DNA from: Escherichia phage phi G17
Sequence record: NC_070870.1
Length of the DNA: 64,000 bases
Strand: one strand, 5' to 3'
Shown: positions 2,569 through 27,797 of the stretch, in pieces
Numbering within the stretch: the stretch's first letter is position 1
Layout of the letters: each line of letters begins with the position of its first letter
Notes under the pieces: generated by a model
The model's input: only the letters and a program-made list of their open reading frames with translations
The model's database searches: none
What the model was told of the DNA's origin: nothing
Made by a program: the position numbers and the translations under genes

Positions 2569-3049
2569 AGGTTGGCCTTATCTTCTGGTGGTGGTCCTTG
2601 GGGCCACCATTTACTTTTGGGGTAATTCCAACGGACAGTCTACTGTTCAAAAGAAGTGGGATGACCAAAAGGTCGAAGACCTGAAGGCAACACAAAAATT
2701 ACAGGACAAATACAATGCTCTCCAAAGAAACCATAGTTATGAAGTCGGGTTACTCACTTCCCGGTTGCAGACGGCTGAGAGTAATTACGCAAGCGAGCTT
2801 GCTCGCGTTAGCAGTGATTACGACAGCCGGATGCAACAGTCTGAAAGACGAGCATCGATATATCAACGTCAAGCCGAAGCCGGAACCCTTGAGTGCAGAA
2901 GTCTTGCAAGCCATGCAACCAGACTCGACAATAGTCTTGAAGAAGGCAGACGTTTGGTTGAAGAACTCCGGGCAACTGTTAGACTCCGTGACAACCAACT
3001 AATTGAGTTGGGTAAACAAATTCAGGCTGACCGTAAACTTTTTGAATAG
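2549..3049 (+). CDS. i-spanin (Rz-like)
   Basis: Start [24 protein letters not shown] has an N-terminal TM followed by a long charged coiled-coil; GGAGG SD; overlaps endolysin stop; contains embedded o-spanin. Confidence 0.6.
2739..3002 (+). CDS. o-spanin (Rz1-like lipoprotein) embedded in +1 frame of Rz
   Basis: [32 protein letters not shown]: signal peptide with lipobox-like TTAGC, Pro-rich mature part; entirely inside the Rz ORF in another frame. Confidence 0.5.
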   Translation: MKSGYSLPGCRRLRVITQASLLALAVITTAGCNSLKDEHRYINVKPKPEPLSAEVLQAMQPDSTIVLKKADVWLKNSGQLLDSVTTN

Positions 3050-3057
3050 GAATAACT

Positions 3058-23900: not shown

Positions 23901-25292
23901 GACAAAGGTAATGTGGTTGCCTATGAGCAATCAATTGACCCTAACATGCTGAAGCACATTGAAGGCGAGAATCACCTTGCCCGTGCAATCGGTGTATGGC
24001 GTGGTCGTCAGGTTGAAGAAGCTAAGGCACAGCGTTTCAACGATATGCTGATTGAGAACCTGCATAGCATGTACGAGAACGACATTAAAATGTCTGCCTC
24101 TAATAAGTCCCAGTACGTGAACCTTCTTGGTTCTAAACTGGACCCAGTAACTGCTGATGCGCTTAAGCTGATGAACAGTGAAACTCGTCAGAAAGCAGAG
24201 AGCCTGTTTGGTGAGGGCGAACTATGGGTACGTCGTGACATGCTGAATGATGCACTAGGTTATCGTGCAGCTTCAGTTGGTGATGCATGGTCTGGTAACT
24301 CTCGTTGGTCCCCGGAAACTCTGGATACCTTCAAGAAAGCTATGCTGGGTGTATTCGGCAACCGTGCTTATAAGTACACAATGGGTGGAGAGAACCTGGT
24401 TCAGAACTTAGTTAAAGAAGCCAAGACTCTGATTGTAGTTAAGTCAGTAGTCGTACCTGCTGTTAACTTCTTGGCCAACCTTTACCAGATGGTTGCTCGT
24501 GGTGTACCGGTTAAGAACATTGCTAAGAGCATTCCACAGAAAACTGCTGAGATTAACCAGTACCTGAAATCTCGTCTGCGTCAGGTGGATGCAGAAGCAG
24601 AATTACGTGCAGCTACTAACCCGAACCAGATTCGTAAACTTAAGGCTGAGATTCAGTCCATCTCTGATAGCCATAAGCGTATGAGTATCTGGCCCCTGTT
24701 GGAAGCTGGTGAGTTCTCTTCAATTGCAGATGCTGGTATTGGTCGTGATGACATCCTGATTACTGAGGGTAAGATTCACGAATACATGGATAAGCTGGCT
24801 GATAAGTTGCCCAAGTCTGTACGTACTGCTGGTCGTTATGCACTTATCACTAAGGATACTGCTCTGTTCCAGGGCATCCAGAAGACGGTTGAGTACTCTG
24901 ACTTTATTGCTAAAGCAATCATCTACGATGAACTGACCCAGCGTAAAGGTAAGACTCGTGAAGAGGCACTTGGTCGTGTAACGGAAGAGTTCGTTAACTA
25001 TGACCGTCTGCCTGGTCGCTTCCGTGGATATATGGAAAGCGTTGGTTTAATGTGGTTCTACAACTTTAAGATTCGTTCTGCAAAAGTTGCAGTATCCATG
25101 ATTCGTAATAACCCAGTACATGCAGCAATGGCTATGTTGGCTCCAACTCCTACCATGTTTGGTAATGTTGGCTTACCTATTCAGGACAACATCTTCAGCA
25201 TTGCAGCACAGGGTAACATGGGTTACTCGTGGGGCTTTGGTCAGGGACTTCGTGCTCACAACCTTAACCCTTGGCTGAACTTAACTAACTAA
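14922..25292 (+). CDS. virion-encapsidated RNA polymerase (giant vRNAP, N4 gp50-like)
   Basis: Single uninterrupted 3456-aa ORF; N4 vRNAP is about 3500 aa and is the last gene of the late strand, as here; internal K-x-P-x-T-x-x-YG segment (KNPLTITIYGSG) resembles T7-like motif B. Confidence 0.85.
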   Translation: MNRKHAMSTFDRLAGFADSITNAKQVDVSTATSQKQAAQGQSPFQLTPENAYNLQTGRVGNLGTGAFEPGSLQADFTQASPLEIINKYGNEQGLQILNSRANAADVVRQDLSKQRTNAEAFGDTLSGVGLGVANTLGGIAALGTGLVNDNAGASIASGMDWLNEGVRNLQSDALNANRNVVQNQNQITAQENQKLYEQDIKNGENDLVASLSRIGRDAFDSVANTLDNGMAASDGLSEGIGSLFTGGPLIRGVSALGKVMVGGDKAVKGITLAAELGSRPAQVALSAGRVAAPAVAIGGMEAGGAYQQTASEIMKMSHQELASKSPVYQQHIADGLSPDEARRQTASETGITAAGLTAPVAAATGPLVSRFELNPLKVGSLAGAGSNMLRETVEEGIQSGFGQFAQNTAIKENVDASRDTLKGVGEQAGLGALYGFGSAGVAQAPGATVKAAGAAVAPAVRTTLAGASLVGNALAKAASPITNILVQRGEEVAKRNEQASPVADATVSAAAQEATAQSEQAQATVQEAVDAMDITPEEKAAATQYASDLTQAMNFDPVEIEQANPAIREAVSGSTNRVEAIQKMADLVNTAEDPNVQMEAAIQMYDNIMSMDSFINRDPGALANLEQGSPAAAIVDQFSGLMANVQNTPKVLRAFRAIHSMIQEQAEAGKLKATEEANQAQANNIAMAADVSPEVLDADSVNMVLKHASEGKITLGNRQRAALQSAAAVLQGAREFDAKAEELGLRPQDIVSKQIKTDESRSNEGQYSALQHAKRIRSAYNSGNFDLASAYLNDFMQFAQHMQNKVGALNEHLVSGNADKNKSVHYQALSPSREWVRSRTGLGVNPYDTKSVKFAQQVGLEAKTVADIANALATAYPELNVSHVNVTSLDSRLDKPAAQVVKEFRQGGLDATQSQQTNEPVNQVDETPAPVQETAPTVQPKAEPVVENKPAPTKDTSSKTEEVSTTKSETVDATLTNEDTTQEVAETKTEMESVFPVYNNEKTPNQFLKAFTLPEEPKSRTIGSESPLTDVKQALSSAARFEAFTQKENNALTGDVMKRYQDLMDFGETLKTTLSDRLAKFLANKNVGKRFAEGTEANRWVGGKLLNIVEQDGDTFKFNNQLLETAVLAGLQWRLTATQNAAVKDMKDVAAITGVEASLLPEGILAEFENAQTLVEATNSLAQKIESYWGLNRNANAPLGYTKGIPMAMATEILSSLIEMGEVKESMLDVSEIDPASNKTVGLYTIEKLDDNDAINKFPTAIEEAVLLEPEEKMYFGDDIPSVAQTQLRNPAVKNTPEQKAALKAEQATEFRVHMPMVNFYEAMGRENILELMGAGTLNPELLNVNTAKSLEGKNLSVSMAYDSLFGVISQVREQEAGLDTPIHYGYNMTRVGRMQMLGKNNPQSSKLVREAILPTFSTIDLSNENSQTFSDFQLGLAQALGIKVHNMSREAMSEKLTKALEGNLKPAVDMMVEFDKSGHLPTDAVDILKTSLGGDKSFVALMALMEYARYLNSDDRANFNTPLYVEADGVTNGPINAMVLMTGGKFTPDWIKNTAKGGLFFDKAGKTMNEHRSQDDSVDLYEASTNGLQQALNELRTTYRNNVPVMNQMNHLQKIMDLFIKDFNLNEDGTLDLKRGIAKNPLTITIYGSGARGIAGKMVSAITDTIYERFSDVLQARAADPSISPAMAMFGKEAASEADAQAMLDTFLTSMEALTGNVPVMRKGELSIQQAEGALTGKLDPQKFTVSGNALKNLQENMLHLFVEPMRTGIQNTVGEGLMHSTENLQKATQIQSLVLQDMFQQAVQAKLAEKENDPTWKKGDFLTQKELNEIQESLSPLAPMIETGSQTFYIAGSENTDVANQVLATNLDDRMRVPMSIYAPSQAGVAGIPFMTIGTGDGMMMQTLSTMKGAPKNTLKIFDGMNIGINDITDASRKANEAVYTSWQGNPIKNVYDSYAKFMKNVDFSKLSDETKQAIAKSALEYDQREGATDDLLRVGAEQIERNLRNIALGVDIRHKVMNQVQTTVDQMAAVGAPYVNNGKISLEGLTVDQQVAKLNELFDAELNKRRDAVRAAKAEPVKEVPAMEQVGRVLKSGVRLLSNTAITKLAKEMSPEQQAVLKEVQNSLAAKDYKVVYGTPAQLDAYAIEKNITRPAPEDIEAAEAGNAYGWTNFDDKTIYLVTPSLETLVHELVHASTFESVLAHYEGTPNEAVQNIEDLMNQFRALDVKDESPAVREAYADALNTINGHLSNGFIEPAMSKAAALNEYMAWGLTNRELIGKQKKTTALKAMVQSVYEAIKRLVFGRKKAPVNADDMFSGLLFNSSVVMRGQAPTAAVSKDTTLFHSKAYGDNTRLEELGQTFDKLITNYIGSEPVQQVIRKGKFSDAVVNATKVTRDVQAHGFTMNMQEQRLFTNIVAALATEAAISPAALSRAQEYYAHVTKNLTVEAFMTDPDSTNPADRYYAQQKFDTIMGANNIEYDAQGRSSLLPTFVALAMVSEDVRNVLADIPVMKADKQSGNTVDAMLTNIGTAAMASLNARVAGDTKATNVQEGMDALAQTIMQTSLNAQSFYDSIATPSGNAIDRANQYLVDSIDVLSTRALDGAREVAANTKNPLVKGAAHAAQLVAAIATEKNGAIVAEGVMAAMNQGKAWQPFHDLVNDLTGRTKSNASVYDLIKAVRAQVQADRQQFREHLPTTIASKFSRKLTNDEWKAMHTGMGKTDLAVLRDTMSLAEIRDLLTDQKIVDREVNKLEADLQKQAGRNWPLINRKSKQLAQYMINGTVGNNLLRNATAISRMLGERQAARSTVDVAQLDKLITLYALEAMNKKDREMLSSLAQSEVDGMDFVTSYLVGQRKDEMAKAKSDMRATLNQYKGHIPSENKQGVNLIVAEDSQFADLIEKSYVRLGTYQGSSANRGPARSYYFAPVQAQAPFSQGILQNVRNTAGGVDLGTGFTMGSMVAGRITDKPSVDRITKALARGERGNEPLLPVYDDKGNVVAYEQSIDPNMLKHIEGENHLARAIGVWRGRQVEEAKAQRFNDMLIENLHSMYENDIKMSASNKSQYVNLLGSKLDPVTADALKLMNSETRQKAESLFGEGELWVRRDMLNDALGYRAASVGDAWSGNSRWSPETLDTFKKAMLGVFGNRAYKYTMGGENLVQNLVKEAKTLIVVKSVVVPAVNFLANLYQMVARGVPVKNIAKSIPQKTAEINQYLKSRLRQVDAEAELRAATNPNQIRKLKAEIQSISDSHKRMSIWPLLEAGEFSSIADAGIGRDDILITEGKIHEYMDKLADKLPKSVRTAGRYALITKDTALFQGIQKTVEYSDFIAKAIIYDELTQRKGKTREEALGRVTEEFVNYDRLPGRFRGYMESVGLMWFYNFKIRSAKVAVSMIRNNPVHAAMAMLAPTPTMFGNVGLPIQDNIFSIAAQGNMGYSWGFGQGLRAHNLNPWLNLTN

Positions 25293-25670: not shown

Positions 25671-26063
25671 TTAAATTGTGCAACCACCACCGTCACATGT
25701 GTTGTTTTCTGCAAAGGAAGCCAGTGCCTTAGCAGTCTCCTCTTTCTCATGCAGTGCCTGACGTAGCAGGTAACCTTCTAATTCCCAAATCTTATTGAAT
25801 GCATTTTCATATGCATAACGACGACCTACCCACTCATCGTAGATAGCTGGGTCAACACAGGCAGATACGCCTTCAACTTTGAAGCCATTTTCCAGGATGA
25901 TAGTGCAATAGGTTACTAGGCTCAGATTAGCCAAATCATCTTCCGGGATTGCAGAAGGGTTAGCGAATCCAGACTTCACTGCATCAGCACCATTGAAATA
26001 GTAGACGCTTTTAATTTTAGCTTCGATTGATTCTTTACTTACTGTTGCCATTATTAGCCTCAT
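25671..26063 (-). CDS. hypothetical protein
   Basis: 130 aa ORF. Confidence 0.4.
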   Translation of the reverse strand: MRLIMATVSKESIEAKIKSVYYFNGADAVKSGFANPSAIPEDDLANLSLVTYCTIILENGFKVEGVSACVDPAIYDEWVGRRYAYENAFNKIWELEGYLLRQALHEKEETAKALASFAENNTCDGGGCTI

Positions 26064-26220
26064 AGAGTGGTTTGAGTTTGTACTTAAACATGACTGCGTT
26101 GTTATAGGCTACGCTACCTGCAAACACCAAGGACTTACGTCCTCGGTTATCCGTTACCTCATAGGCATACGGGGTTAAGATTAGGTCAATCATCTTGGAT
26201 GTCCAATTAACAATATTCAA
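26035..26220 (-). CDS. hypothetical small protein (doubtful)
   Basis: 61 aa ORF starting immediately after a minus-strand terminator; may be spurious. Confidence 0.2.
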   Translation of the reverse strand: MNIVNWTSKMIDLILTPYAYEVTDNRGRKSLVFAGSVAYNNAVMFKYKLKPLYEANNGNSK

Positions 26221-26247
26221 ATAAAAAAGTCCCTCCGAAGAGGGACT
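26221..26247 (-). terminator. rho-independent terminator (minus orientation)
   Basis: On minus strand AGTCCCTC-TTCG-GAGGGACT followed by TTTTTTAT. Confidence 0.65.
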
Positions 26248-26407
26248 TAGTAGCTTTTAATAGATAGCTGTATTTGAGCATTATAGTCTGCTCATACTCA
26301 CACTCTTCTGTCGAAGAATATGTTTACAATATCTAGAGTGCCGGACTGTCTTACCGGCATTGTCTTTAGAGTGCTAAGCAATCAGGACTATGTTCTCTAT
26401 TAATGGG

Positions 26408-26481
26408 TGCCCACTACTGGATTTGAACCAGTGACTTTCCGATTATTAGTCGGTTGCTTTCCCCGTCTAAGCTAAGTGGAC
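26408..26481 (-). tRNA. tRNA-like gene, canonical cloverleaf, apparent anticodon AAU
   Basis: Minus-strand read GTCCACT-TA-GCTT-AGACGGGGA-AAGC-A-ACCGA-CTAATAA-TCGGA-AAGTC-ACTGG-TTCAAAT-CCAGT-AGTGGGC-A: 7-bp acceptor (one G-U), 4-bp D stem with GG in D loop, 7-nt anticodon loop with U33, 5-bp T stem with TTCAAAT loop; anticodon stem has one A-A mismatch. Confidence 0.45.
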
Positions 26482-26613
26482 ATAATAGGGTGAGTCATGC
26501 CAGGCTCTAACTGGCTCCTTCTTCGCAATCCTTACATACCCCTACATAATTATTGCGTTAAGCTTTTTTGTTTAAGTTTAAGTGAAGGTGTTCTTGCTGA
26601 CTCATAATACTTT

Positions 26614-26687
26614 CAATTCAGAGTAGCACTCACACAGGATTGTGCCTTTGAATACCGGGAAGTATAAACGAGTGCTACTTTGAATTG
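26614..26687. repeat. long inverted repeat (18-nt arms, 1 mismatch, 38-nt spacer)
   Basis: CAATTCAGAGTAGCACTC at 26614-26631 versus GAGTGCTACTTTGAATTG at 26670-26687. Confidence 0.7.
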
Positions 26688-26857
26688 GTTCCCCGTTTCT
26701 AATACACGGACGGGGACACTCCATGGTCGTTTGATAATCAGGACGACTCACTCCTGACTGAGGTTACGCTGTTAGGCGACCATCAGATACGCTTCTTCGT
26801 TTGCATTTATGTTATTGGTTCGTTTCTAAAAAACCGCATAATCGCTACGAAAACTAT

Positions 26858-26936
26858 CGGGGAGTGCACTAGCTCTGGGCCACGCTCGTGGACATCGACC
26901 TTCCTTCCACAGCTAATCAACTAATACACTCCCCTG
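26858..26936. repeat. inverted repeat (8-9 bp arms GGGGAGTG / CACTCCCC, about 60-nt spacer)
   Basis: CGGGGAGTGCACT at 26858-26870 and ACACTCCCCTG at 26926-26936; shares motif with the 27042-27115 repeat. Confidence 0.6.
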
Positions 26937-27041
26937 TTAGGAAGCTGCCAGGGATTCCACCTGGCTCCATCTGTTTTTAAAGTCACTCAGATATCGTCTG
27001 GACTTCCCATTGCCGTGGGATGTTGATAGAAATGAGAGGTT

Positions 27042-27115
27042 CTATCGGGGAGTACACTTACTCGACTGGTTAAACTATATCTATCCAGCTCCCCAGCAAA
27101 TGTACTCCCCGATAG
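27042..27115. repeat. perfect 15-bp inverted repeat with 44-nt spacer
   Basis: CTATCGGGGAGTACA at 27042-27056 and TGTACTCCCCGATAG at 27101-27115. Confidence 0.75.
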
Positions 27116-27289
27116 TCCATAATAGGAGGGAGGGGACGAATCCTCCCTTTATACCCTATGTTGCATGTAAGATCTAACAATTCGATGCTGTAGATAGCGA
27201 TACTATCCGACATTAAACCCAGCCCCTGGGGGCTTGTGTGATTATAATGCTCAACATTGAGCGGTTAGTTGATAAGGGATCTGAAGCCT

Positions 27290-27317
27290 TATCCCAAAGA
27301 TAATAACCTTTGGGATA
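27290..27317. repeat. perfect 10-bp stem / 8-nt loop hairpin
   Basis: TATCCCAAAG-ATAATAAC-CTTTGGGATA. Confidence 0.6.
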
Positions 27318-27530
27318 TAGCCTAAGATTCAGAAATGGCCCCTATATGGAGAGGCCATTGATTAACCCGAATGTTGCTTTACATTTGCTGTGATAACCAG
27401 TTCTTAAAATAGTCTGTCTGACGGATGGGGAGCCACCCCTAGCGTCAGTGCCATACGGCAAAGATTAAGTTAAGAAAGGTTATGATAGGAGTTCCTATCT
27501 CAAAGGATTCTGACAGAACCCTTCACGATA

Positions 27531-27797
27531 TTAACTACTCTTCTTCAGTGCTTCTACTTCACCATCTTTATACCAGGCATATGGTATCAAGACTTTGCAG
27601 CCTTCTGAATCAATGTGGAATGCTTTGTTTCCTTCAACGGGTTCTCCACCCAGAAAAGAACTAACCTTTCCATTGTGCCAGTGAATAGTAAATTTGTTCA
27701 TATTAACCTCGGTTGAACCAATGGACTGGGGAGAGTATTCCAATCCACTGGTTCGGTTGTTGTTATTCTGGCGGCTTGTCACCACCGTGTTTACCAC
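27531..27797 (-). CDS. hypothetical small protein
   Basis: 88 aa ORF; true start may be internal Met (MNKFTIHW...). Confidence 0.3.
   Translation of the reverse strand: MVNTVVTSRQNNNNRTSGLEYSPQSIGSTEVNMNKFTIHWHNGKVSSFLGGEPVEGNKAFHIDSEGCKVLIPYAWYKDGEVEALKKSS

Follow-up and report, generated by a model that had tools for sequence, protein, structure and literature searches.

A predicted small-RNA array of Escherichia phage phi G17 contains a tmRNA-like tag message and an arm complementary to host tmRNA

What does a 1.3-kb stretch of phage genome encode when it is rich in hairpins and poor in open reading frames? The question is raised by positions 26221–27530 of the sequence analysed here, a 64,000-nucleotide stretch of Escherichia phage phi G17 (NC_070870.1; hereafter the window), for which the first-pass annotation had offered three options: a cluster of stable small RNAs, a replication origin, or decayed tRNA genes. 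By in silico analysis of its anatomy, codon-level and structural conservation, complementarity to host RNA, and distribution, the region was found to be an array in which small-RNA modules are assembled as a mosaic, rather than an origin of replication, and to include at 26860–26686 (minus strand) a unit that had not been annotated before. The main content of the region, a tmRNA-like tag message and an arm antisense to tmRNA, was absent from the first-pass annotation.

Coding content and structured modules

The ORF listing of both strands agreed with the earlier description of the region as ORF-free: no ORF of at least 60 aa lies wholly inside 26221–27530, the longest being of 55 aa (27010–27177, plus), 49 aa (26602–26751, minus), and 47 aa (27070–27213, minus). 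A mechanical ORF of 60 aa (27482–27664, plus) starts within the right edge of the region and is antisense to the gene next to it. Small protein genes overlooked by ORF callers might still fill the region, as PHANOTATE-type annotations of relatives give many ORFs of 30–70 aa here, and the 47-aa ORF matches phrog_37481 (E 1.6e-20). However, a PHROG family match was obtained for only one of six ORFs tested from within the region, and the annotated set varies from one relative to another and is spread over both strands. The phrog_37481 ORF, for which no clear ribosome-binding site was found, has its end within hairpin C or, in other phages, hairpin B, and in Kuraviruses the conserved DNA reaches a stop codon ahead of the conserved GC hairpin and continues beyond it. 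We consider overlooked small genes highly improbable, and the region is without a convincing protein gene. The structured modules, together with this ORF, are as follows.

26227–26248, minus strand: intrinsic-terminator-like hairpin, AAGUCCCUCUUCGGAGGGACUU then UUUUUAUUU, closing the RNA array
26404–26482, minus strand: tRNA-Ile with the unusual anticodon AAU (ARAGORN and Rfam tRNA model)
26610–26692, minus strand: element A, long-arm hairpin with a 38-nt top (arms 26614–26631 and 26670–26687)
26859–26934, minus strand: element B, long-arm hairpin directly 5' of the anti-tmRNA arm
26946–27004, minus strand: 'T-arm block' of 59 nt, ending in the hairpin GCCAGG-UGGAAUC-CCUGGC (26965–26947)
27042–27115, minus strand: element C, paralogue of B with a different top (21-bp arms with two G.U pairs)
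27070–27213, minus strand: doubtful small ORF of 47 aa, with the phrog_37481 match, entering hairpin C
27129–27148, minus strand: GC hairpin GGGAGG..CCUCCC, kept in Gamaleyaviruses and Kuraviruses upstream of a B-type hairpin
27286–27321, minus strand: hairpin D, 12 bp with a 4-nt loop as RNA, kept in 7 of 7 Gamaleyavirus relatives examined

The cloverleaf noticed earlier was called by ARAGORN as tRNA-Ile(AAT) at 26404–26482 (minus), and the Rfam tRNA model gave 61.6 bits (E 2.9e-12) against a gathering score of 29. On both measures it is classed as a tRNA, for which aminoacylation and decoding through A34 are predicted; CCA is not encoded, the 3' end being ..GGGC-A-CCCA. This gene is found in UE-M6, Mimir124, PhAPEC7, and ECBP1, and is absent or replaced in G7C, St11Ph5, and Bas96. 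A terminator is annotated in PhAPEC7 and G7C at the place matching 26227–26248, and this hairpin reads as a terminator on the plus strand too. In an Infernal/Rfam scan, which the first-pass annotation had proposed, only the tRNA exceeded its gathering score; at E up to 10 the other matches were sub-threshold ones to tmRNA, STnc100, and a CRISPR repeat, the latter two both sitting on the terminator hairpin, and the window gave no match to Y RNA, ROOL, GOLLD, or ribozyme families.

The three long inverted repeats reported before were recovered, at 26614–26631/26670–26687 (18 nt, 94% complementary), 26859–26872/26921–26934 (14 nt, 86%), and 27042–27062/27095–27115 (21 nt, 90%, with 15 nt perfect), as was the hairpin at 27290–27317, which has 10 perfect base pairs as DNA and 12 with G.U pairs as minus-strand RNA. 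The motif CGGGGAGTRCA, described as four copies in alternating orientation, occurs exactly three times (26858 plus, 27046 plus, 27101 minus), and the fourth copy (26924–26934, minus) carries two mismatches. With at most one mismatch, the whole window holds four matches versus 1.24 expected, and the motif merely reflects the arms of hairpins B and C, which are paralogues of each other.

All the elements, including tRNA-Ile(AAU), hairpins A, B, and C, and several short hairpins, are most readily read on the minus strand, on which the neighbouring genes also lie. Against dinucleotide shuffles, the folding z-score was −5.5 for both A and D, −4.2 for B on the minus strand versus −2.6 on the plus strand, and −8.4 versus −6.8 for C. 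The folding energies were −36.3 versus −25.4 kcal/mol for B and −46.5 versus −34.9 kcal/mol for C, so that owing to G.U pairs both are about 11 kcal/mol more stable on the transcribed strand. This difference argues against a replication origin or another DNA-level element with protein-binding inverted repeats, to which the grouping of inverted repeats at a module boundary, in a stretch lacking ORFs, had pointed. The GC-skew turn lies elsewhere, at about 25.0–25.4 kb, where the virion RNA polymerase gene ends and the convergent-transcription boundary lies. Positions 26609–27114 are missing from the close relative G7C, and the modules recur in unrelated phages within tRNA clusters and in lambdoid prophages within the leaders of late operons. 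An origin at this site is extremely improbable.

Conservation of the modules points to RNA as well. The arms of element A show compensatory changes among relatives (CACUC/GAGUG, CACUGU/ACAGUG, CAUUGU/ACAAUG). In the top of element B, a stem GUGGA/UCCAC carries the loop GGUC, for which a GGCC downstream is a possible pairing partner; the stem covaries (GAGGA/UCCUC in CBA120, GUAGA/UCUAC in Kuravirus), support for the putative pseudoknot-like top of this upstream hairpin being confined to that stem. The top is 87% identical in Ackermannviridae and the entire element 86% in Kuravirus. The T-arm block is 85–98% identical in Kuravirus, DS8, 9NA, and SopranoGao, and its stem changes in concert (CCAGG/CCUGG, GCAGG/CCUGC, GCCGG/CCGGC, GUAGG/CCUAC). 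Of the three options, these results favour a cluster of stable small RNAs: the structures are conserved through compensatory changes, their folding is better on the transcribed strand, and in unrelated phages the homologues have promoters of their own or are placed within tRNA clusters. The option of decayed tRNA genes holds in part, as relatives carry at the corresponding positions a changing set of canonical and odd tRNA-like genes, and a GCUC/GAGC core resembling a D-stem is present in the hairpin stems; the modules themselves are conserved, not decaying.

Hairpins A, B, and C are members of a widespread family in which the stem is conserved and the top is variable. A hairpin of the A type comes after the tag unit in every phage family examined, and the top of C also precedes the tag unit in other N4-like contigs (L045, L064). 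Together with tRNA-Ile(AAU), the T-arm block, and hairpin D, they are modules accompanying the core unit. Hairpins A to D are plausibly processing or stabilising stems, and the long-arm hairpins with hypervariable tops could form a second RNA class beside the tag unit. As antisense guides against the phage's own genome, the hairpin tops gave nothing above chance in the 64-kb window. Reading the feet ..CACAAC/GUUGUG.. as an integron attC-like site was rejected: the AAC/GTT core alone agrees, and in the records examined no integrase gene is annotated around the element.

The core unit and its tag reading frame

The core unit, with its flanking hairpins about 250 nt long, runs in the order hairpin B, anti-tmRNA arm, leader, 10-codon tag frame, pseudoknot, hairpin H, and hairpin A. 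Its central features are as follows.

26824–26860, minus strand: anti-tmRNA arm CCGAUAGUUUUCGUAGCGAUUAUGCGGUUUUUUAGAA, 37 nt, colinear antisense to E. coli tmRNA nt 64–109
26805–26823, minus strand: single-stranded A-rich leader ending in AUAAAU, belonging to the unit itself
26772–26804, minus strand: tag reading frame without a start codon, GCA AAC GAA GAA GCG UAU CUG AUG GUC GCC UAA
26726–26757, minus strand: H-type pseudoknot downstream of the tag, with covarying stems S1 and S2
26686–26716, minus strand: hairpin H, UCCCCGU/ACGGGGA with loop CCGUGUAUUAGAA, then ACCA (26689–26686)

The tag frame translates to ANEEAYLMVA followed by the stop. It has 10 codons in all 133 copies examined, without a start codon, and an in-frame UAG stands 8 codons 5' of it. 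The 133 copies specify 15 tag peptides of the form AN[DEN][DEN]xxL[MAI][AV]A, further examples being ANDDVVLMAA and ANDEQFLAVA; the terminal Ala codon is represented by four synonyms, and UAA, UAG, and UGA all occur as stops. At the junction of AUAAAU with GCA, U(−5) at 26809 and A(−4) at 26808 occupy the positions of U85 and A86 of E. coli tmRNA. Both are kept in the window and in the aligned copies, phiMAM1 having C(−5)A(−4); in tmRNA, U85 and A86 act in frame setting, U85C being tolerated and A86 essential (PMC2481249).

Downstream of the tag, S1 of the pseudoknot is formed by UCAGGA (26757–26752) with UCCUGA (26743–26738), and S2 by GUCG (26747–26744) with CGAC (26729–26726). Among the copies, S1 is 99.5% paired with 86 compensatory cells and S2 99.4% paired with 23. 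When set against shuffles, pairing was 93.8% versus 77.2% and doubly changed cells numbered 73 versus 18.7, a result reached by none of 500 shuffles, and slid controls were at most 62.7% paired. The stems of hairpin H vary yet stay paired (CCCCGU/ACGGGG, GCCC/GGGC, GCCCUGA/UCAGGGC, GGCGGGAG/CUCCCGCC), and its counterpart in other phages has the loop GUGUGAUUAAUAA. The unit is under purifying selection at both codon and base-pair levels.

Related DNA was detected in 771 of 50,697 phage records, the carriers including T1-like, Felix O1-like, Ackermannviridae, N4-like, and lambdoid phages. Among 5,426 E. coli genomes, 117 carry it in prophages, one of these being in O26:H11 strain 11368. The unit is dispensable, because G7C is without it. 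Functionless debris of tRNA or tmRNA genes, shuffled by recombination or homing endonucleases, would account for the extreme mosaicism and the odd tRNA-like genes seen in the comparison of close relatives, and for the HNH endonuclease gene that adjoins the region in G7C, the phage missing 26609–27114. Debris would not be expected to show purifying selection on codons and base pairs, near-identical modules across unrelated phage families, or dedicated promoter matches in lytic phages, and this explanation is very unlikely.

Besides tRNA, the tmRNA models were the only Rfam families recurring across the homologues, with 23–27 bits in four phage lineages, all of them below the gathering score. 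For RF00023, the window gave no match at E up to 10, and the homologues reached about 11 bits against a gathering score of 47. With a covariance model built from the phage units, the best non-self match was the E. coli ssrA message, in register (10.8 bits, E 0.41), and plain local alignment of the message part to E. coli ssrA gave about 2 sd, which is not significant. As for a tRNA-like domain, a targeted scan found a T-arm plus a strand pairing with the 5' end of the leader in 1 of 133 copies, and inspection of the compact contexts of KPS64, T1-like phages, and phiMAM1 revealed none. In T1-like phages and KPS64, a sigma-70 promoter match (10/12) ends about 7 nt 5' of the arm, and in KPS64 the whole unit is accommodated within a 276-nt gap between two tRNA genes. 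The promoter match abutting the arm, the narrow gap, and the lack of a pairing 3' half together indicate that the unit has no tRNA-like domain of its own. It shares with tmRNA the tag frame, the U85/A86 positions, and the pseudoknot, and differs in the tRNA-like domain and the Rfam score. Low-threshold ARAGORN calls of tmRNA (down to 70%) took whichever T-arm lay downstream, were inconsistent between relatives, and were rejected.

In this window, a tRNA-like domain with G3.U70 might be composed of the T-arm block (27004–26946) and CAGCUUCC-UAACA-GGGGAGUG, making a self-contained permuted two-piece tmRNA whose coding piece would come after the tRNA-like domain. The Rfam model tmRNA_permuted (RF04321) aligns at 26998–26772 with 26.9 bits and E 0.007, and CCAGG-UGGAAUC-CCUGG followed by CAGCU(U)CC is similar to the 3' end of E. 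coli tmRNA. However, the score is below the gathering value of 47, and ARAGORN found no tmRNA in the window at default or even 85% thresholds. The T-arm block adjoins element B in this window alone among the 50,697 phage records; in relatives it lies downstream or is absent while the tag unit is intact, and the GGGG in the arm of B is replaced by AGUG, GGAG, or GGUG. A self-contained permuted tmRNA can hardly be maintained as an explanation.

The anti-tmRNA arm and its possible role

The segment of E. coli tmRNA opposite the arm, nt 64–109, comprises the 3' side of pseudoknot 1, the A-run, U85/A86, the resume codon, and tag codons 1–6. The mature RNA is predicted to begin at or close to GAUAGUUUUCG (at about 26858 of the window), to end beyond hairpin H or A, and to be 200–260 nt long, and the blocks proposed to pair include UAGUUUUCGU, GCGAUUAU, and GCGGUUUUUUA. 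When aligned to the reverse complement of ssrA, it scored 30 versus 14.9 ± 2.5 for shuffled arms (0 of 1000 shuffles as high). The duplex predicted with host tmRNA has 33 bp, with interruptions, and −34.5 kcal/mol, versus −13.2 ± 3.0 kcal/mol for shuffled arms (0 of 1000). The informative duplex analysis was the one targeted on the leader alone; in whole-molecule prediction of the unit against tmRNA, long duplexes were no better than those of shuffles.

In all 10 phage lineages, the arm is colinear with the reverse complement of tmRNA nt 68–106 (0–1 of 1000 shuffles), scoring 29–44 on the reverse complement versus 13–19 on the forward strand. As the lineages share ancestry, this complementarity counts as one maintained inherited feature, not as ten independent events. 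The conserved blocks of the arm are the blocks complementary to tmRNA, with indels between them. The target is nearly invariant across the Enterobacterales genera sampled, in agreement with the hosts of the unit-carrying phages; divergent examples are Yersinia, where the message starts as AAUAAUU followed by GCAAACGACUCG, Dickeya, and Salmonella. Pairing of the arm with the unit's own message was considered and rejected, as the predicted duplex averaged −16.4 kcal/mol against −29.9 kcal/mol with host tmRNA and the latter was stronger in 62 of 62 variants. As judged from sequence, the arm has complementarity to host tmRNA beyond chance, maintained across lineages, and its pairing with tmRNA is predicted.

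The explanation we prefer is a minus-strand array of small-RNA genes. We infer that it is transcribed with the neighbouring middle genes, ended by the terminator at 26248–26227, and processed. The phage RNA would then dock in vivo on host tmRNA, masking the native message, and would offer its own message from about the same place. Ribosomes rescued with the host alanine-charged tRNA-like domain and SmpB would use this template and append a phage-specified tag, (A)ANEEAYLMVA in place of (A)ANDENYALAA, by which the fate of the tagged proteins in proteolysis would be altered. That the core unit anneals to host tmRNA and puts its own tag message in place of the native one has, in our judgment, just short of an even chance. 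The general proposal that many Enterobacterales phages encode a surrogate coding piece for host tmRNA, annealing across the message start and leading to a phage-chosen tag, is put forward tentatively, at somewhat less than even probability. Literature searches yielded no RNA that supplies a message to tmRNA in trans and none that targets tmRNA by antisense pairing, and gave nothing relevant on phage tmRNA-like RNAs or these tag peptides.

The main rival is a plain inhibitor of tmRNA, in which the arm blocks tagging or rescue and the tag frame is a leftover or is kept for another reason. The same complementarity supports it, the duplex would mask pseudoknot 1, U85/A86, and the resume codon, all needed by tmRNA (PMC2481249), and for phage DS6A an RNA made up of the tRNA-like domain alone has already been proposed as a tmRNA inhibitor (PMC4131195). 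By covering pseudoknot 1 and the resume site, a duplex might do no more than inactivate tmRNA, which calls for caution about a tag swap. Inhibition alone, however, leaves unexplained the invariant length of 10 codons, the restriction of changes in the terminal Ala codon to synonymous ones, the interchange of stops, the retained U(−5)A(−4), and the downstream pseudoknot and hairpin, and we regard it as rather unlikely.

Nearly all bacteria have the tmRNA-SmpB system, which has attracted study both as a drug target and for its part in phage growth. If the tag substitution is true, trans-translation would be reprogrammed through an RNA–RNA hybrid, a new viral route to rewire host protein quality control and a natural tool for programmable C-terminal tagging. 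It would account for a conserved unannotated block in hundreds of sequenced phages, including T1-like, Felix O1-like, Ackermannviridae, N4-like, and HK620 phages among the candidates for study and therapy, and would mean that tmRNA finders built on the tRNA-like domain overlook message-only relatives. Even on the conservative reading, the units represent a sizeable new family of phage non-coding RNAs, and 'ORF-free' gaps beside phage tRNA genes are RNA islands.

Comparison with known systems

The T4 species 1 and 2 RNAs, stable, small, and structured RNAs of unknown function among phage tRNA genes, resemble the unit by description; they are not known to carry a tag frame. Trans-acting base-pairing sRNAs of phages and prophages are similar in having a 5'-terminal region antisense to a host RNA and, in lytic phages, a dedicated promoter match. 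The unit differs from them in its predicted target, tmRNA, in the unusual length of the pairing (about 30 bp, interrupted), and in its translatable tag frame.

A database paper on tmRNA in 2025 counted 79 phage sequences. Among mycobacteriophages, the Bxz1 group carries a complete tmRNA, and DS6A carries the tRNA-like domain alone, an RNA thought to disturb host trans-translation (PMC4131195). The unit is the converse of the DS6A RNA, being a message only, with an antisense arm and without the tRNA-like domain.

The likeness to the mRNA-like domain of tmRNA (SsrA, RF00023) extends over an A/U-rich upstream stretch with U(−5)A(−4), a GCA resume codon without a start, a 10-codon AN(D/E).. tag ending in Ala, a stop codon beside a hairpin and then an H-type pseudoknot, and a location among tRNA genes. 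In contrast to tmRNA, the unit lacks the tRNA-like domain (no G3.U70 acceptor stem, no T-arm then CCA), is about 250 nt long against 363, stays under every Rfam tmRNA gathering threshold, and carries an arm antisense to tmRNA that real tmRNAs do not have. The closest functional analogy for the proposed hybrid is the two-piece tmRNA of Alphaproteobacteria, Betaproteobacteria, and cyanobacteria (RF04321, RF01849–51), of which the coding and acceptor pieces are joined by base pairing alone. There the two pieces come from one gene and pair via the acceptor stem and helix 2, whereas the partner in the proposed hybrid would be an intact host tmRNA, paired over its message start.

Setting and content of the non-coding region

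The window comes from an N4-like phage of the G7C type (Gamaleyavirus, Schitoviridae). Features around the region 26221-27530 are as follows.

end at 25292, plus strand: virion RNA polymerase gene, 3456 aa
from ~25340 rightwards, minus strand for all genes there: gp48/49-like, gp47.2-like, RuvC-like and SSB genes
25671-26220: gp48-like ORFs
26248-26227: terminator hairpin, closing the region
26610-26692, 26859-26934, 27042-27115: long-arm hairpins A, B and C
27286-27321: hairpin D
27531-27797: gp47.2-like ORF

The region lies between the gp48-like and gp47.2-like ORFs, and is therefore located inside the minus-strand transcription unit. The structural claims of the first-pass annotation were all borne out apart from the count of a repeated motif, and its suggestion of a small RNA cluster was supported, the content being more specific and more surprising than it anticipated. 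The replication origin that it also offered was not upheld, because G7C lacks 26609-27114 altogether, indicating that the array is accessory; the GC-skew turn at ~25.0-25.4 kb simply tracks the switch of coding strand. Nor do small ORFs appear to fill the region: a family match was obtained only for a 47-aa ORF at 27070-27213 on the minus strand (phrog_37481), which extends into hairpin C and covers about one-tenth of the region. This ORF is doubtful as a gene and leaves the picture of the region unaffected. The segment 27116-27530, in which hairpin D is joined by hairpins at 27218-27230 and 27334-27359, is conserved throughout the Gamaleyaviruses, G7C among them, and in part (GUUAGAUCUUACAUGCAAUA and the GC hairpin) also in Kuraviruses. 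It may be the promoter or leader of the array or hold further RNAs.

Tag frame and downstream structures

The minus strand at 26804-26772, ..AUAAAU GCA AAC GAA GAA GCG UAU CUG AUG GUC GCC UAA, encodes ANEEAYLMVA in 10 codons with no start codon, as compared with ANDENYALAA, the tag of E. coli tmRNA. By pattern scan of IMG/VR, at least 120 contigs with the tag frame were detected. The frame is 10 codons long in 133/133 copies, yielding 15 peptides that fit AN[DEN][DEN]xxL[MAI][AV]A; the last Ala codon is GCG, GCC, GCU or GCA, and the stop UAA, UAG or UGA. Peptides of the +1 frame, which has an AUG, vary in both length and sequence across copies, and read-through from upstream is excluded by an in-frame UAG 8 codons upstream of the tag frame. 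Positions -5/-4 of the unit are U/A, the counterparts of U85/A86 in E. coli tmRNA, of which A86 is essential for frame choice (PMC2481249).

In most copies the last tag codons pair with the sequence just 3' of the stop (78.8% paired in the majority type), so that the stop codon sits in a hairpin loop. Then follows a strongly covarying H-type pseudoknot, with these stem variants.

S1: CAAGG/CCUUG, UGAGG/CCUCA, CGGGG/CCCCG, UCAGGA/UCCUGA, UCAGGG/CCCUGA
S2: CCGA/UCGG, CCAG/CUGG, CCAA/UUGG, GUCG/CGAC

Pseudoknot cells were paired at 93.8%, against 77.2% in shuffles and at most 62.7% in slid controls, and 73 cells were doubly changed, against 18.7 in shuffles (0/500). The next element, hairpin H, has a conserved loop (GUGUGAUUAAUAA; GUGUAUUAGAA in the window) and freely covarying stems. 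Together these features speak for a genuine message in the tag frame, and we regard the anatomy and conservation of the unit as solid.

ACCA is located directly 3' of hairpin H at 26689-26686, and likewise in several N4-like relatives (loci L002, L064, L101, L103 and L105), where the unit end thus looks like an acceptor microhelix of 7 bp with ACCA attached. UE-M6, phiMAM1 and the majority type end differently.

The window gave a sub-threshold match to the Rfam tmRNA_permuted model (26.9 bits, E 0.007), and DS8, ZCKP8 and pYD38-A gave Rfam tmRNA matches of 23-27 bits. Direct sequence similarity of the unit to E. coli ssrA is weak, and the best non-self match of a model from 45 phage units was the ssrA message, in register, at just 10.8 bits. 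Kinship with tmRNA is therefore argued from architecture and tag, not from alignment statistics. A tRNA-like domain was not called by ARAGORN in the window, low-threshold calls on homologues were inconsistent, and a downstream search for a T-arm followed by a strand able to pair with the unit's 5' end was negative in all but 1 of 133 loci. One candidate, a permuted domain in the window composed of the T-arm block, CAGCUUCC, UAACA and GGGGAGUG, was rejected: the junction needed is absent from all other phage records, and the GGGG also needed is AGUG, GGAG or GGUG in relatives.

Just 5' of the unit, a near-consensus sigma-70 promoter was matched in T1-like phages (TTGACA-17-TAGATT) and recognized by visual inspection in Ackermannviridae, phiMAM1 included. 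KPS64 (Ounavirinae) carries TTGACA-17-TAAGAT immediately 5' of the unit, the entire unit being held in a 276-nt gap between tRNA-Ile and tRNA-Arg.

Modules, mosaic and distribution

As minus-strand RNA, hairpins B and C gain ~11 kcal/mol in stability over the plus-strand form, and their imperfections are G.U pairs on the minus strand that would be A.C mismatches on the plus strand, which suggests that they function as RNA from the transcribed strand. Hairpins A, B and C are members of a large family (136 distinct matches, both strands counted) of the canonical form ACAAC-A-GG-U-AAGAGCAUUG ... CAGUGCUCUUUCC-GUUGU. The stem has a bulged A and a tRNA D-stem-like core, GCUC/GAGC, and its third pair is non-canonical, usually U.U, with G-C there in B and C of the window; the tops, 30-110 nt long and sometimes with a T-arm, are entirely different even between close relatives. 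Whenever the unit sits in a longer transcript, a family member adjoins the arm on its 5' side (B in the window), and a second lies 3' of hairpin H in every phage family examined (A in the window). Plausibly, these hairpins are processing or stabilizing stems, or recombination linkers for cassette shuffling. The T-arm block, a 59-nt module (26946-27004, minus strand) with a covarying hairpin, is 98% identical to a Kuravirus copy and 85-93% identical in 9NA, DS8 and SopranoGao; it always comes after ..AAG, and the module 3' of it differs each time.

Matches at 80-95% identity were found in 127 phage records, split into 4-6 pieces each, and piecewise mapping revealed a cassette-like mosaic among relatives. 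In Mimir124 and PhAPEC7, one hairpin takes the place of B, T-arm block and C. In UE-M6, ECBP1, St11Ph5 and Bas96, the same blocks recur in a different order. Between them stand tRNA-like genes [Ile(AAU), a 'Cys(ACA)' pseudo-tRNA and an 'Ala(CGC)' tRNA lacking G3.U70] as well as several CCA-ending elements uncalled by ARAGORN. The odd tRNA-like genes of Gamaleyavirus relatives are located as follows.

locus L001: 2086-2158, 2914-2993
locus L005: 1945-2023, 2315-2386
locus L007: 2693-2764

In these arrays 'Ala(CGC)' has U3-A70 replacing G3.U70, 'Cys(ACA)' has a broken anticodon stem, and a third is a tRNA with an undeterminable anticodon loop. Both the window's Ile(AAU) and the relatives' Cys(ACA) have anticodons beginning with A, unusual for bacteria. 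Strings of tRNA-like elements with no ARAGORN call were observed on the minus strands of L001 (~2560-2850), L002 (~2370-2480) and L003 (~2640-3050), the (A)CCA end of each being followed at once by AUU.. of the next; examples are UUCCGGUG...GCCGGAACCA and UACCAGUUGCACG...GGAGGUUCGAAUCCUUCACUGGUAACCA, the latter with a ~60-nt insertion. In G7C (L006 2404-2901), an HNH homing-endonuclease gene is inserted beside gp47.2, adjoining the place of the absent array, and may be relevant to cassette shuffling. The gp48-/gp49-like proteins adjoining the Mimir124 array (L002 565-1564) carry the automatic label 'anti-CRISPR protein' (phrog:acr); the window counterparts of these pipeline-labelled genes are 25671-26063 and the neighbouring gene upstream.

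When 26600-27130 was used as the query of a sensitive search, 468 phage records of unrelated families were detected, with a different sub-segment in each and almost none of the matched stretches annotated. With the T1-like unit as query, matches were found in 771 of 50,697 phage records (181 over at least 80% of unit length), including T1-like phages, Ackermannviridae, Felixounavirus, Mooglevirus, N4-like and lambdoid phages, and phages of Erwinia, Cronobacter, Citrobacter and Enterobacter; the unit-related stretch is nearly always unannotated. Matches were also present in 117 of 5,426 complete E. coli genomes. The match in O26:H11 strain 11368 is flanked by the antiterminator and holin genes of a lambdoid prophage, the same place as in HK620, where the unit is located between qut and the tQ terminator.

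HK620 (L015 ~470-560), L017 and L023 share on the minus strand a ~90-nt conserved module, GGUGAAUGCGCAGGCUGAUGCGC...GCCGGAGAUCAGCGCCGGCCACCAC, with a GUGGUG/CACCAC closing stem and two hairpins with complementary loops (GGCUGA and AGAUCAGCG), which may be a tRNA-elbow mimic. Vibrio phage pYD38-A (NC_021534.1) is nearly identical to Klebsiella phage ZCKP8 over the ~600 nt compared, spanning promoter, unit and two tRNA genes, and its 'Vibrio' host assignment looks questionable. In the feature table of Salmonella phage Mushroom (NC_041923.1 63018-64909), the tRNA genes are on the strand opposite to that given by ARAGORN in the same locus; the strand is wrong either in the record or in coordinate conversion.

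The arm and host tmRNA

The most conserved motif at the unit's 5' end, (UA)GUUUUCGU, is the exact complement of E. coli tag codons 3-6, and the leader's entire 5' half is colinear with the reverse complement of tmRNA nt 68-106 in 10 of 10 phage lineages tested. Alignment scores of this arm were 29-44 in the ten lineages, against ~15 +/- 2.5 in shuffles, of which 0-1/1000 reached the observed score; forward-strand scores were 13-19. The conserved arm blocks are the tmRNA-complementary blocks (GUUUUCGU; GCGAC or GCGAUUAU; UUGCGG(C)UUUUUA), and lineage-specific insertions fall between them, where the predicted duplex would bulge. For the duplex with host tmRNA nt 70-112, a mean of -29.9 kcal/mol was predicted; pairing with leader and tag of the unit itself gave -16.4, and the host duplex was the stronger one in 62 of 62 variants. 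For the window arm (26860-26824) with tmRNA nt 64-109, 33 bp and -34.5 kcal/mol were predicted, a value reached by 0/1000 shuffled arms (-13.2 +/- 3.0, minimum -28.1). The target, GUAAAAAGCCGCAAAAAA(A)UAGUC followed directly by GCAAACGACGAAAACUAC, is near-invariant in Citrobacter, Enterobacter, Klebsiella, Serratia, Erwinia, Pantoea, Pectobacterium and other genera, and these genera match the hosts of the 771 phage records with unit-related DNA.

We propose that the unit might be a message-only relative of tmRNA which, once annealed to host tmRNA, would make use of the tRNA-like domain of the latter. Hidden within the arm-tmRNA duplex would be U85/A86, the resume codon and codons 1-6 as well as the 3' side of pseudoknot 1, and the phage leader would emerge beside pseudoknot 1, with its own U(-5)A(-4)-GCA ~21 nt further on; the corresponding distance in host tmRNA is 11 nt. 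Such annealing would explain why the unit has no tRNA-like domain of its own, why its coding sequence is constrained and its frame-setting nucleotides are kept, and also the host range. The main rival, that the phage RNA acts purely as a tmRNA inhibitor, leaves the coding constraint on the tag frame unexplained. The tag-swap mechanism is testable, and we hold it tentatively, as falling a little short of an even chance. The tag of tmRNA is recognized by ClpX and SspB. The phage tags keep the N-terminal AN(D/E), with position 6 often aromatic, and carry MVA, MAA or AVA at the C-terminus in place of LAA, which, from this recognition, could weaken or redirect proteolysis.
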